Source: Candidatus Moraniibacteriota bacterium
GTDB taxonomy: Bacteria; Patescibacteriota; Minisyncoccia; Moranbacterales; UBA2206
Assembly (NCBI GenBank): GCA_003483065.1
Contig: DMWY01000007.1
Span: 76,962-140,961 of the forward strand
Direction: 5' to 3'
Length of the DNA stretch: 64,000 nucleotides
Below the pieces are notes generated by a model. That model saw only the letters and a program-made list of their open reading frames with translations. It did no database searches and had not been told where the DNA came from. Shown one piece after another: positions 192 to 5,955 of the stretch. The stretch's first letter is position 1; each line of letters starts with the position of its first letter. Position numbers and translations under genes: made by a program.

Positions 192-1286
192 TTATTGACT
201 ATTGCGATTCCTAAATACTGCGCATTTAATTTTTGTTGAATCACTTTTTGAAGCACAAGTCCACCTTACTAATCCTCCTTGAGTAGTAGGAAAAACAGGC
301 AAGTTTGTTCGAACAAGACCCGTAGTGTCATCAACGAGAACGCTATCGCTAGAACAAAATCCCGTGGCAACATTAAATGAACTCGCAGTAGAATCATAAT
401 ATCCTGTTATCAATCCATCAGACACTATGATTGGTTGAAGTAAAACTATTGGTCCGCACAAATTAATGGTTGGCGTCGGAAGAATTATATTTGTGCTTAT
501 TTTATTGGATGATGTATTCCCACTTGTTGCATTAGCTGGCGTATAGTATTCGCATTTTCTGTCTATTGTACAACCACTAGAGGAAGTTCCTACACTTGAC
601 CAAGCTAAATTAGCTGTTAGTCCCGTATCATCATTTGAGCACTTTACTCCATTTGCAGGAACGGAGCCAGTACAACTAATTGCAGAAGAAGGTGTTCCTG
701 AGCCAATACAGGCTACTTTACTTTTTGTAGAATAACAAGTTTCACTTTCCCGATAAAGTCTTGAATTATATTCAATACTTCCATTTGAGCAATCACAAAC
801 CTGCCTTAGTTTGCATGATGCGGCATATAAATAGGACCTGCAATAAGAATCATCATCGCCACATGTGCTAGGACATGGATCAGAAGATGGAGAAAATGAT
901 TTTTCATCATGCACTTTCATATAATAGCAACTGTCAGAGTTTTTTGAATTACGCCATCCACTAGCCTTTGTCGTACAAGATTCTGAAGTCACAGTTTGTG
1001 TTCCGCAATTACCTGTTCTTGAAACGGTTTCAATGCTACCGCAAGTATTTGAAGCATAATAATTCCAATCCAAATATTTAATCATGCCGGTTGGACAACT
1101 ATTTCCAGAGATACTGCAACTAGTGCATCCTCCGGTAGTCACAACGGTTCCTCCAACTGCTGTGCAATCAGCTTCGGTTTTGTCTCCCCCGCAAGTCAAT
1201 GGACCAGCTTTGGCAAAATTTGTCGGACTAAAAACACAAATAGCTAGTCCTATACACATAATCAAGAAAAGATTTTTATTTTTCAT
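192..1286 (-). CDS. Secreted cysteine-rich repeat protein (shorter paralog of the 2440-5505 protein)
   Basis: N-terminal signal peptide MKNKNLFLIMCIGLAICVFSPTNFAKA. Very high Cys/Gly/Ser/Thr content. Shares motifs with the 1021-aa protein (RCEYYT, CTGSVPxxGxKC, WxCxxKxDSTKxIKCA). Confidence 0.6.
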   Translation of the reverse strand: MKNKNLFLIMCIGLAICVFSPTNFAKAGPLTCGGDKTEADCTAVGGTVVTTGGCTSCSISGNSCPTGMIKYLDWNYYASNTCGSIETVSRTGNCGTQTVTSESCTTKASGWRNSKNSDSCYYMKVHDEKSFSPSSDPCPSTCGDDDSYCRSYLYAASCKLRQVCDCSNGSIEYNSRLYRESETCYSTKSKVACIGSGTPSSAISCTGSVPANGVKCSNDDTGLTANLAWSSVGTSSSGCTIDRKCEYYTPANATSGNTSSNKISTNIILPTPTINLCGPIVLLQPIIVSDGLITGYYDSTASSFNVATGFCSSDSVLVDDTTGLVRTNLPVFPTTQGGLVRWTCASKSDSTKIKCAVFRNRNSQ

Positions 1287-1318
1287 TTTTTTTATTTTAA
1301 AAATATTTATTAACTTAA

Positions 1319-1819
1319 TTATTCTACTGTTATTTGAACTGCTTCTTTGCTAAGAGTCATATAGACAATGCCAATTTCTTGACCTTGAGAAATTTTTTCT
1401 AATTTGAAATCTTTAATTTCTTCCAAAGTATCTCCATTTTTTTTCATAAAAACAGTGCCCTTTTTCACAGCATTGCCTTTACTATCAATTTCTACTGGCC
1501 CATCTGTGCTTTTTACAGAATCAAGAATTTTATCCGGAAGAATCTTAAGCTCCAATTCTTTTCCGTCCAGCGTAGTGACATTCAAAGTTTCTTTACCGAT
1601 AGAATCTACAACAGCTCTGACACCTAATTTAATATTTTCGGTTTCTATTTTTTTCTGAATTTCTAATTGTTTTCTATCTTGCTCATTATTTTCACTAATC
1701 TTATTTTCATTAAGAACCGGAGGATTTTTGGTTTTTTTGCTTACTATAGCTAGCATTAAAATAACTGCCAGAACAATTGCTCCAATGATGATGATAATTT
1801 GGATAGTTTTGTTTTTCAT
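1319..1819 (-). CDS. Small N-terminally membrane-anchored protein; paralog of 5530-5955
   Basis: One N-terminal TM helix (IIIIIGAIVLAVILMLAIV) followed by a soluble, probably beta-rich domain. Same architecture and gene position as 5530-5955. Confidence 0.5.
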   Translation of the reverse strand: MKNKTIQIIIIIGAIVLAVILMLAIVSKKTKNPPVLNENKISENNEQDRKQLEIQKKIETENIKLGVRAVVDSIGKETLNVTTLDGKELELKILPDKILDSVKSTDGPVEIDSKGNAVKKGTVFMKKNGDTLEEIKDFKLEKISQGQEIGIVYMTLSKEAVQITVE

Positions 1820-1945
1820 TTATTTTTTTTACCCCGTGGAATAATTATATAATAAACTTCAGAAAATACTGGGTCGTAATTCTCTGATTTTTTTTAGTTA
1901 TTTTATAAGTCCGTATTCCATGGAGTGAATTAAAATTTACTACTT

Positions 1946-5400: not shown

Positions 5401-5505
5401 ATCGGAACATAGGTCTCCCGGAGCACAAGAAACCGCTCCAACAAAAGAAACATTCAAAAAAAATACTGAAGCAAAAATTGATAGAATAATGACCTTTTTT
5501 TTCAT
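2440..5505 (-). CDS. Large secreted cysteine-rich repeat protein (1021 aa)
   Basis: Signal peptide MKKKVIILSIFASVFFLNVSFVGA. Repeated W-x-C-x(5-9)-C-x-A units (WWCVDKNDSTKRIKCA, WKCGGGIDVNDCKAY, WSCWQNDSSTIIPCIA, WTCLGTQKNSGLCDA). Shares blocks with the 192-1286 protein. Rich in Gly/Ser/Thr/Asn. Confidence 0.6.
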   Translation of the reverse strand: MKKKVIILSIFASVFFLNVSFVGAVSCAPGDLCSDNQTDSCKYCSESNKYNGGAGYVKGGILKGICSITNGSSCTMDAACWTSSGVFSSTVGSESATAVDCCSSSNCTGGKICEKGKCVDAGLGITPTTPIASVVKPTAIMEDPTATSVTGKGTATNGAKITKIRIYKDTSGCGSDPRVHLDGCTGTSLFEGVPKTNSGNIWSAKVDFAGTVTKETKYSVKVQDDKGVWSGCVSKIFATTTGADPESGFGTGGDTSKGTDLFTCSGSVPYGGEKCPNSKTNTSTVQNSWTNVGTSVSSCGSTARCEYYTTGVTNNPVISPITPDPTAPSCTATGTGNTPITSGDSFTVKLTAKNANSIGWLCSNFDCTGSTCNYVKDYTVKNTLTTDKLDSAGSISTTMAYINNDSSIKVRRCTFYVSNSAGKTGECSNSVAVRPKESAESATNCGDANDLAFSSEATYADNKLGGESLCKDNVPIISPGPTPWAETTNNEYSKETTWKCGGGIDVNDCKAYLEKTTEEVNDGDGTVVDADVSGGEIGISLVDLCGTASGNKQKEVYGSGLGGKSLAGLILCSDKANPEVGPSSALPTAYPAMGSGEVSWWCVDKNDSTKRIKCAMEVNGNGSPQSEVATMGNVVCNEGSVGSCSVASGSSASIGDFSRNDCKIACEKQLTSAGCFISLAGVATTATAPCYCKAGGEVASPVNGGILFFGGNCSYTPSVLINSSNNTDTSTAISENDTNSNSFPDVSNTNTNISDATKNEIIQSKSSQFCGTYAREWGINEQWPTSWKDLNASGGLCKVDNRNTDTSKNVIYLIKEYPINPPTSKNPAIWSCWQNDSSTIIPCIATRKGDATTDIARAKEDTQGECGTASSYYDGKARESEFTGRTFCNRGVPEFYNEEPVVSITDYNDTSQFPFPTEERGRTKWTCLGTQKNSGLCDATIIKHGDSVWRTVATTATKVAVAVAAVYGFPLIFSAEISAQIDAMMNAYGWANFAGSTANTLQTGNIDLNTGAAVINEGLKY

Positions 5506-5529
5506 AGATTTATTTTTAGAATTTTTATA

Positions 5530-5955
5530 TTAAAATTTATTAACTACGATCATTATCAGTTCATCATTTTTCGCATTATATTGAATTTCCACATCCTGAT
5601 TTTTTGGCACATCCAGAAGTCCTATTGTTTCATTGACAAAAGTTCCATCTTTTTTCTTTCCTTGTTTTATAACAGAAAATTCTCCTGATTGCATATAAAG
5701 ATTTAGTTTTCTGCCATCGTTAAGACCCACTTCGATATTTTCAACATTTGCATCGATAGAAAGAATCTTGCCAACTACAGTTTGAATGTTATCCTCCTTG
5801 ACTTCTTTTCGTGCGGATACTTTAGTGGGAGTAATCACTTCTGACTGATTAGGAGTTTTGTTTTTATTGCTTCCCAACAAAACTATCGCAATAGAAATTA
5901 TAACAATCACTACAACTGCGACAATTATGGCTATTTTTATTTTTTTGTTATCCAT
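5530..5955 (-). CDS. Small N-terminally membrane-anchored protein; paralog of 1319-1819
   Basis: TM helix IAIIVAVVVIVIISIAIVLLG followed by a soluble domain. It sits immediately upstream (in transcription order) of the large cysteine-rich gene. Confidence 0.5.
   Translation of the reverse strand: MDNKKIKIAIIVAVVVIVIISIAIVLLGSNKNKTPNQSEVITPTKVSARKEVKEDNIQTVVGKILSIDANVENIEVGLNDGRKLNLYMQSGEFSVIKQGKKKDGTFVNETIGLLDVPKNQDVEIQYNAKNDELIMIVVNKF

Follow-up and report, generated by a model that had tools for sequence, protein, structure and literature searches.

Two tandem gene pairs for a membrane-anchored protein and a secreted cysteine-rich repeat protein between ftsZ and nrdR of a Moranbacteria genome: a possible two-component surface complex

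Host recognition and attachment by bacteria of the Candidate Phyla Radiation (CPR; Patescibacteria) are largely unexplained beyond type IV pili. Large, Cys-rich secreted proteins are known as a class in these organisms, the closest described examples being those of the Peribacteria, a CPR lineage whose large extracellular proteins carry a signal peptide, contain around 7 % Cys, vary between strains and are clustered in the genome (Anantharaman et al. 2016, PMC4736985). The Peribacteria proteins are without functional annotation and have been proposed to serve in attachment (PMC4736985). Here we describe an arrangement in a stretch of 64,000 nt (contig DMWY01000007.1; hereafter the window) from a groundwater CPR bacterium (Moranbacteria), in which two tandem copies of a conserved gene pair form operon-like modules on the minus strand between ftsZ and nrdR. 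Each module comprises a bitopic membrane protein (141 and 166 aa), termed the anchor, followed by a signal-peptide-bearing Cys-rich protein (1021 and 364 aa), termed the cargo. We tentatively favour, at somewhat short of an even chance, the view that each of the two tandem units encodes a two-component, adhesin-like complex at the cell surface, consisting of a dock and its cargo. The genes concerned, in minus-strand order and with their window coordinates, are as follows.

7552-8811, minus strand: ftsA
6180-7394, minus strand: ftsZ
5530-5955, minus strand: anchor 1 (141 aa), an open reading frame
2440-5505, minus strand: cargo 1 (1021 aa), a multi-domain protein with a Sec signal peptide and 49 Cys, recognised from its open reading frame and composition, with homologues P0001-P0003 and P0013
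2036-2401, minus strand: DUF805 membrane protein (121 aa; Pfam PF05656)
1319-1819, minus strand: anchor 2 (166 aa), paralogous to anchor 1 and carrying 24 extra residues within the beta domain, from hhalign and alignments
192-1286, minus strand: cargo 2 (364 aa), with a signal peptide and 27 Cys, from its open reading frame, BLASTP and a hidden Markov model (HMM)
about nt 55, minus strand: start of nrdR, last in this order

The cargos can be likened to the Peribacteria proteins by description only, in that they too are large, Cys-rich, variable and provided with a signal peptide; in contrast, no partner protein, defined repeat unit or hot-spot organisation is described in that report (PMC4736985). 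The five open reading frames that a sequence-only reading of this DNA had listed for a duplicated module are all present, and its attribution to a CPR cell is borne out by anchor 1, which is identical (100 %) to US30_C0004G0051 of Candidatus Moranbacteria GW2011_GWF2_36_839.

The pairing was assessed in 13 loci with 19 anchor genes, obtained through homologue and anchor-relative look-ups and including the window (loci and homologous proteins carry L and P numbers, respectively). All 19 anchor genes adjoin at least one gene for a signal-peptide-bearing Cys-rich protein, so that the synteny check suggested by the sequence-only reading finds the two genes together in every relative examined. Two chromosomal sites are used, namely ftsZ...nrdR (the window, L003, L005, L007, L009, L011, L012 and L015) and uvrC...uvrA (L001, L017, L018, L021 and L022), and both are occupied in two genomes, the Moraniibacteriota metagenome-assembled genome MFD12002 and UBA4824. 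A single module is found in L005 and L009, and two are found in the window, L003 and L007; L021 harbours an alternating array of cargo537, anchor147, cargo365, anchor149, cargo401, two unrelated genes, cargo478 and another anchor. Within the window clade, the 141-aa anchor type precedes the big cargo type and the 166-aa type precedes the small one. In L007 the order of the modules is inverted, with the cognate anchor and cargo partners kept. Inside the window pairs, the genes are separated by gaps of only 24 and 32 bp.

It might be argued that anchor and cargo are neighbours by descent only, the anchors being unrelated small membrane proteins within a variable island. All of the loci do come from closely related genomes, the order of anchor and cargo is not fixed, and unit-bearing proteins exist elsewhere without anchors. 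We nevertheless hold this to be improbable, as two unrelated chromosomal sites carry the pair, which is also arrayed in tandem or in alternation, and cognate types stay together after a module swap. Pairs are likewise kept while their flanks change, as with the presence or absence of DUF805 and the insertion in L021. Moreover, the paralogues are old (24 % identity), so the pairing has outlasted a long divergence. The L021 insertion (6919-8302) consists of the two unrelated genes (204 and 258 aa) that interrupt the array, and is possibly a small mobile or toxin–antitoxin-like element.

That the two anchors are related at all, as had been claimed from the sequence, is not apparent from BLASTP alone, which finds no relation between them (E 1.6). 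By profile–profile comparison they are nonetheless true paralogues: hhalign of eight sequences of the 141-aa type with three of the 166-aa type returns a probability of 96 % and an E-value of 4.6e-9 over 127 columns, spanning the full length. At 24 % identity, the paralogues differ by a 24-residue insertion in anchor 2, and an anchor 2 orthologue without this insertion aligns collinearly with the 141-aa type. The N-terminal transmembrane (TM) segment is strong (Kyte–Doolittle 3.5-3.7), and comes with no cleavage-type site, lipobox or prepilin motif. An AlphaFold model of anchor 1 (7-sequence alignment; mean pLDDT 73) predicts a TM helix at aa 3-27, a disordered linker at aa 27-48 and, at aa 57-139, a seven-strand beta domain (pLDDT 83-91) that resembles the oligonucleotide/oligosaccharide-binding (OB) fold. 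The best Foldseek matches of this model are all OB folds, namely CusF, IF1, the proteasomal Rpt OB ring and the OB domain of PBP1a; these matches are weak (E 0.03-0.1), with TM-scores of 0.52-0.65 when CusF and IF1, small targets of a single domain, serve for normalisation. Given such E-values, the predicted ectodomain is described as OB-like and is not assigned to any OB family. Pfam and NCBIfam scans of the anchors yielded only sub-threshold, TM-driven matches, with no Pfam family recurring consistently among 17 members, and no sequence relative of the anchor profile was found in the PDB.

The predicted fold raises the alternative that the small barrel protein serves specifically as an extracytoplasmic chaperone or assembly factor (a holdase or foldase), which would engage the cargo only transiently during export. 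Membrane-tethered OB-fold chaperones are known in CcmE and CusF; the layout of CcmE, an N-terminal TM helix followed by an OB domain, is that predicted for the anchors, whilst CusF is the top fold match of the anchor model. As in CusF and the OB/ODD domain of PBP1a, the anchor would place a small barrel of five to seven strands outside the membrane, a predicted likeness with weak Foldseek E-values and, for these two, TM-scores of 0.58-0.65 normalised to the target. Adjacency, cognate pairing and topology are the same for a chaperone as for a dock, and both the window cargo and some orthologues have hydrophobic or glycine-zipper tails of their own, by which they could self-anchor. The composition of the anchors argues otherwise. 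Neither contains any His or Cys, and their alignment holds no conserved Met or Trp, leaving them without the Met/His/Trp metal-binding site of CusF-like metallochaperones; CusF-like or CcmE-like chemistry is therefore excluded, as is thiol–disulfide, metal or heme chemistry more generally. Unlike CusF, CcmE and PBP1a, to which they show no sequence similarity, the anchors have no metal or heme ligands, and no similarity to PrsA, DsbA or other foldases emerged from the Pfam and NCBIfam scans. A chaperone is regarded as a rather unlikely alternative.

Both cargos are of extreme composition, in agreement with the sequence-only reading: Cys accounts for 4.8 % of cargo 1 and 7.4 % of cargo 2, compared to 0.62 % in 38 other window open reading frames, and Gly, Ser, Thr and Asn together make up around 40 %, against 22 % in the same set. 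Each opens with a basic n-region and a hydrophobic core, followed by an AxA-type site (VGA↓VS and AKA↓GP), the latter retained in orthologues; as assessed by eye, the cleavable signal peptides that had been proposed are thereby upheld. The sequence blocks that had been quoted as common to the two proteins are likewise all present ([RK]CEYYT, C[ST]GSVPxxGxKC, VGTSxSxC and WxCxxKxDSTK(R)IKCA), with BLASTP giving E-values of 3e-8 for the C[ST]GSVP...[RK]CEYYT module and 9e-5 for the WxC...IKCA block. The regions distinguished within the cargos, other than the repeats, are listed here.

4186-5433, minus strand: conserved N-terminal half of cargo 1 (aa 25-440), from orthologue identity and invariant Cys
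4579-4722, minus strand: CSGSVP...RCEYYT module of cargo 1 (aa 262-309)
540-680, minus strand: CTGSVP...KCEYYT module of cargo 2 (aa 203-249)
2569-2643, minus strand: hydrophobic segment near the C-terminus of cargo 1 (aa 955-979), possibly serving as a membrane anchor (Kyte–Doolittle 19-mer maximum 1.93)

Within the N-terminal half of cargo 1 lie a domain with 12 Cys, the CSGSVP...RCEYYT module and two regions rich in beta structure that appear Ig-like by eye. In Pfam and NCBIfam, neither cargo matched any family at E ≤ 1, the Myxococcus cysteine-rich repeat (DUF4215/TIGR02232) included, and PDB sequence searches with cargo 1 and with the profile of its N-terminal half gave no meaningful match. 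Lipobox, prepilin motif and LPxTG (sought as LPxT[GAS]) are absent from all four window proteins, none of which has the marks of a sortase substrate or a type IV pilin.

The W-x-C...C-x-A motif noticed previously proves to be the C-terminal third of a longer unit with four Cys, laid out as C-G, approximately 25 residues, C, approximately 28 residues, W-x-C, 8-12 residues and C-x-A. Alignment of 12 units, taken from the window cargos and two homologues, shows no variation in the four Cys or the Trp and hardly any in the Gly; both here and in a 41-unit alignment, the elements C1-G, C2, W-x-C3 and C4-x-A follow in this order within 60-90 residues. An HMM locates four units in cargo 1, not the "at least five" counted before, and a single unit in cargo 2, with no further copy in the six-frame translation of the window. 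The literal spacing W-x-C-x(5-9)-C-x-A fits only two units of cargo 1. The units and their independent E-values (i-E) are given below.

3970-4179, minus strand: four-Cys unit 1 of cargo 1 (aa 443-512), HMM i-E 3e-16
3652-3879, minus strand: four-Cys unit 2 of cargo 1 (aa 543-618), HMM i-E 4e-21
2965-3204, minus strand: four-Cys unit 3 of cargo 1 (aa 768-847), HMM i-E 4e-21
2683-2919, minus strand: four-Cys unit 4 of cargo 1, the modelled unit (aa 863-941), HMM i-E 7e-20
210-464, minus strand: single four-Cys unit of cargo 2 (aa 275-359), HMM i-E 9e-21

When 1.84 billion representative proteins were searched exhaustively with the repeat profile, 132 scored E ≤ 1e-3, of which 40 reached E ≤ 1e-10 and 11 reached E ≤ 1e-30, and a single protein could hold as many as 25 units; against P0010, the window-clade repeat profile scores an E-value of 2e-120. 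The canonical unit is around 62 aa long (nGxCGxAxxxYxxxxxxFxGxxCxxGxxxPxxPxFPxxGxxxxWTCxGxNGGxxxxCxAxR) and carries FP and NGG, whereas the units of the window are longer (70-86 aa) and divergent, with long insertions and loss of NGG. An HMM built solely from canonical, foreign units detects the unit of cargo 2 at E 1e-5 and unit 4 of cargo 1 at E 1e-3, and scores units 1-3 weakly or not at all; profile matches between window units and the canonical units of unrelated organisms are reciprocal. The repeat had not been recognised as a named domain, and indeed neither its divergent nor its canonical form matches any Pfam or NCBIfam family. There is no Pfam match on record for a 17-unit protein of Minisyncoccus archaeiphilus, and no PDB sequence relative of the repeat profile. 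Unit 4 of cargo 1, as modelled by AlphaFold from the 41-unit alignment (pLDDT 81, pTM 0.67), is predicted to be a small beta domain with WxC and CxA on the last hairpin, and the Foldseek comparison proposed by the sequence-only reading retrieved nothing similar from the PDB (best E 2.2) or BFVD (best E 1.1).

Named carriers of the unit are MNSC_11150 and MNSC_02290 of Minisyncoccus archaeiphilus, a cultured archaeal parasite, in whose units C1-G, C2, W-x-C3 and C4-x-A are invariant as in the window, together with a WS6 bacterium and other Moranbacteria. The best match, with 22 units, lies on a contig of 73 % GC beside a TonB-dependent receptor and represents one non-CPR diderm, so that the four-Cys domain is not confined to the CPR. 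In 92 of the 131 other carriers, the N-terminus resembles a signal peptide or TM segment; there are two prepilin fusions, LPxTG-like signals occur in two, and several end in C-terminal TM anchors; PKD, Big_9 and cadherin-like domains occur alongside the unit. On the strength of these N-termini, anchors and co-occurring domains, the unit is, as judged from its carriers, one that behaves as an extracytoplasmic display module. As regards the surface role that had been suggested for the cargos, the signal peptides of the window cargos and the N-termini of the 92 carriers are consistent with a location outside the cytoplasm, at the cell surface.

Repeat adhesins of Gram-positive bacteria offer a further point of reference. 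In common with these, the cargos have modular beta-domain repeats, a signal peptide and both conserved and variable parts, and some unit carriers elsewhere resemble sortase-anchored adhesins in their LPxTG-like signals. The window proteins, however, have no LPxTG, and the repeat fold matches neither the Rib and Ig-like domains of adhesin stalks nor any other PDB fold (the Foldseek E-value of 2.2 given above). Furthermore, the window domains are predicted to be disulfide-rich, and their membrane partner is encoded by a separate gene. As separate observations, unit carriers P0022 and P0098 possess a prepilin-type N-terminus (FTLIELLVVIA), one being annotated as a prepilin-type cleavage/methylation protein, which suggests that the four-Cys unit can be shown on type IV pilus-like fibres. 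At the ftsZ–nrdR site of Moranbacteria UBA4824 (L015 1733-5800), a 1355-aa cargo with five CG...WxC units (HMM i-E < 0.1) has an end that, judged by eye, is reminiscent of a carbohydrate-binding domain of the PA14/GLEYA type (FSVRWTGF...GEWTF...DDGVRLWVN).

With regard to conservation, the two halves of cargo 1 behave very differently. Compared with four orthologues, the first 450 residues or so display 49-86 % identity per 100-residue bin, with every Cys invariant, whereas the repeat-bearing remainder displays 0-43 %; for the N-terminal and C-terminal halves, the figures are 60-86 % and 0-40 %, respectively. Anchor identity in these loci is 66-77 %, and because it stays at this level whilst the C-terminal halves diverge, the anchor tracks the N-terminal half of the cargo rather than its variable end. 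The cargo 2 orthologue in L003 is 74 % identical, and an 820-aa relative in L007 shares the N-terminus of cargo 2. At the DNA level, identity to relatives is around 90 % in ftsA–ftsZ and around 75 % in the anchor and the N-terminal half of the cargo; similarity then ends at nt 4137-3961, in repeat unit 1, and is regained (89-97 %) solely in the boundaries between genes. Isolated pieces of cargo 1, among them the last unit (61 % identity), recur in P0013 in a different order, an indication of domain shuffling. A conserved base and a variable tip, encoded at hot spots, point to diversifying selection on the end that would be exposed.

A conserved N-terminal half joined to a variable C-terminal half is also the pattern of polymorphic toxins, in which case the cargo would be an effector, and the small membrane protein or DUF805 the immunity protein. 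Some orthologues do end in glycine-zipper repeats (a faint PF27000 match), and in L015, L017 and L018 a small gene lies downstream of the large one. What varies in the cargos, however, is the same structural repeat and not a choice of alternative enzymatic domains, and scans of the window proteins against Pfam and NCBIfam revealed no toxin family. The anchors are conserved while the C-terminal halves are replaced, the opposite of toxin–immunity co-variation; since it is the conserved half that the anchor follows, its behaviour suits a dock or assembly partner and argues against an immunity protein. In the window clade, moreover, the small gene lies upstream, and DUF805 is absent from L003. We accordingly give a toxin very little credence.

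A surface layer (S-layer) had been named alongside an adhesin in the earlier suggestion of a surface role, and this part of it is not supported. In SlaA/SlaB of Sulfolobales, a small membrane-anchored and a large exported protein are encoded side by side, and the resemblance of the window pairs to slaAB would cast the large proteins as a lattice and the small ones as its membrane stalk. Bacterial and archaeal S-layer proteins are typically Cys-poor, whilst the cargos contain 4.8-7.4 % Cys; multiple divergent paralogues coexist in one genome, with hypervariability among close relatives affecting one half of each. Neither Pfam nor NCBIfam yields an SLH or other S-layer match for the window proteins, and modular repeats take the place of a single lattice-forming protomer. 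In contrast to SlaA/SlaB, they are Cys-rich, multi-copy and hypervariable, with no sequence relationship to that pair, and the anchor is predicted to be an OB-like barrel, not a coiled-coil stalk with beta-sandwich domains. Surface layers are seen on CPR cells by cryo-electron microscopy (Luef 2015, as cited in PMC4736985), which would favour an S-layer; on the whole, however, it appears a most improbable explanation.

Returning to the dock and its cargo, the arrangement could operate as follows. A bitopic membrane protein (N-in, C-out) would carry its small OB-like barrel on the outer side of the membrane by means of a flexible, charged linker, and the cargo would be Sec-exported and stabilised by disulfides. 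The N-terminal half of the cargo, with its Cys-rich domain, beta-rich domains and CxGSVP module, would stay near the cell and pair with the cognate barrel, which would thus be a membrane-proximal dock or assembly partner. The C-terminal half, made up of four-Cys beta domains, would form the exposed, fast-evolving end that contacts a host cell, particle or polymer. From the CPR lifestyle and by analogy with the proteins of PMC4736985, we infer that the cargos may mediate attachment to a host or surface. In favour of such a complex we count the adjacency in 19 of 19 cases at two sites, the cognate pairing, the 24-32 bp spacing and the boundary that each pair has of its own, together with the conservation gradient, the topology, the display carriers and the precedent of PMC4736985.

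Several observations weigh against it. The OB-like assignment depends on an alignment of seven sequences and on Foldseek matches that are weak (E 0.03-0.1). Cargo 1 may not need a tether, because it has a C-terminal hydrophobic segment of its own. A single anchor lies downstream of the cargo in L015, L017, L018 and L022, so that adjacency is conserved but gene order is not. Unit-bearing proteins in Minisyncoccus (L019), L024 and L025 have no anchor neighbour, and the anchor is thus not a general partner of the repeat. Lastly, all anchor loci derive from one clade (Moranbacteria and close Parcubacteria), so synteny partly reflects shared descent. Possible, very distant relatives of the anchors outside Moranbacteria were encountered on the 50 % GC contig of L027, where two small, beta-rich proteins with N-terminal TM segments (2296-2682 and 5237-5809) flank the unit-bearing P0090; the 190-aa protein of the two matches the anchor HMM at E 7e-4.

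A broader and more doubtful extension is that the two hot-spot arrays constitute a host-recognition system of Moranbacteria, built from an OB-fold dock and exchangeable repeat cassettes, with the four-Cys domain as a binding module used across the CPR. Here the dock would bind the conserved N-terminal half of the cargo, and distal repeats would be swapped by recombination via the conserved boundaries. Such cassette exchange would retarget the cell to new hosts, making it a CPR-specific counterpart of the swapping of phage receptor-binding proteins, and the four-Cys domain would serve as a binding module on pili and surface proteins across the CPR, including those of Minisyncoccus archaeiphilus.

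Neither the anchor nor the cargo family is characterised, and within an incomplete coverage of the literature, the four-Cys domain, the OB-like anchor family with its strict pairing, the hot-spot arrays and the conserved-base, variable-tip pattern appear undescribed. The domain is present in many CPR surface proteins, and the two in the cultured Minisyncoccus archaeiphilus make localisation and binding testable there. The membrane-tethered OB-like family, which has no name, is strictly linked to Cys-rich secreted proteins in Moranbacteria. Should the dock and variable probe prove real, they would make host range approachable in a major lineage that is uncultured; should they not, two sizeable protein families would still merit database models.

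Each pair has a boundary of its own, and the boundaries, read from the sequence, align with each other and with those of relatives. Both follow the order TTATCCACA, a hairpin with a GC stem and T-run, and a putative extended -10 box, TTGTGGTATAAT, which lies 5′ of the 166-aa gene and of nrdR. The elements are as follows.

1948-2017, minus strand: module boundary 1, read from the sequence; 89 % identical in L003, with counterparts in L002, L007 and L015
2009-2017, minus strand: TTATCCACA at boundary 1
about 1968-1996, minus strand: terminator-like hairpin CAGTTCC/GGAACTG followed by a T-run, boundary 1
1948-1956, minus strand: extended -10 box TGgTATAAT, boundary 1
142-186, minus strand: module boundary 2, 91-97 % identical in relatives
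178-186, minus strand: TTATCCACA at boundary 2
142-164, minus strand: terminator-like hairpin CAGCC/GGCTG followed by a T-run, boundary 2
109-136, minus strand: putative nrdR promoter TTGGCA-16-TATAAT, downstream of the boundary 2 hairpin

From this layout, two transcription units are likely, one of the 141-aa, 1021-aa and DUF805 genes and the other of the 166-aa and 364-aa genes. A generic promoter and terminator consensus scan gave no excess over chance in this AT-rich region, and did not list the boundary 1 sites. In a comparison of L002, L003, L005, L007 and L015, the intergenic boundaries (window 1929-2028 and 76-192) are 89-97 % identical, and the coding DNA beside them is around 75 % identical or unalignable; the boundaries could be regulatory leaders or recombination substrates. 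The leader attcactccatggaatacggacttataaaataac, 5′ of the 166-aa gene, recurs 5′ of two L015 genes and has no Rfam match, and an Rfam search over nt 1-6500 found nothing credible. The motif TTATCCACA is a perfect DnaA-box consensus with 8 copies in the window against 0.56 expected, a number reached by none of 100 shuffles. Its copies are at 178-186, 2009-2017 and 6034-6042 on the minus strand, 9469-9477 and 20991-20999 on the plus strand, 35488-35496 on the minus strand, 35693-35701 on the plus strand and 38662-38670 on the minus strand. Three of these bracket both modules, and the motif also occurs at the L015 boundary. A TATAAT box lies 25-70 nt downstream of at least four copies (178, 2009, 6034 and 38662), and TTATAAT follows a further one (35488). 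The motif could be a transcription-factor or DnaA site.

The C-terminal tails of the cargos also differ, that of window cargo 1 being hydrophobic and those of P0001 and L005 glycine-zipper-like, with P0002/L009 having none. In P0001 (L002 265-3147) and L005 (8453-11359), the last 150 aa hold three glycine-zipper repeats (G..GP.GAV.G...GE.RD.AG), which replace the hydrophobic tail of the window protein, match PF27000 (PH_gly_zipper) faintly and are possibly membrane-active. Many related Cys-rich secreted proteins share the extreme C-terminus ...C-x-W-[KREQ]-E-V-[ATQS]-P-COOH, with no TM segment afterwards: L001 10001-12457; L017 1150-4359; L018 3333-6827; L021 1607-3220, 3702-4799 and 8400-9836; L022 632-1498; L023 780-2822; and L025 1410-3977 and 4001-6661. 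This tail matches no sorting signal known to us. In the loci shown, the gene that follows it is an anchor, except in L025, which has two such tails and no anchor; L025, and the absence of the tail from the window cargos, rule out W-x-E-V-x-P as a general recognition signal for a downstream anchor.

As for the surroundings of the modules, the 121-aa open reading frame between them is a full-length DUF805 protein (PF05656; E 1.4e-33; score 116.1 bits, cutoff 25.7; all model positions, 1-111, covered). It is missing from the otherwise collinear L003, and is therefore a passenger outside the module; as a module part or immunity protein it is ruled out on the same ground. A functional tie to cell division, considered in view of the site after ftsA–ftsZ, is ruled out by the modules between uvrC and uvrA. 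Searches of phage and plasmid collections (tblastn) and one IMG/VR scan found no relatives, and there is thus no sign of a mobile-element or phage origin. Elsewhere, the window encodes a VirD4/TrwB-like coupling protein with sub-domain matches only (35503-37971, minus strand), a LytR-CpsA-Psr protein (13107-14567, plus strand) and two adjacent PMT_2 glycosyltransferases (38719-40278 and 40434-42311, plus strand), which could glycosylate Ser/Thr-rich surface proteins.

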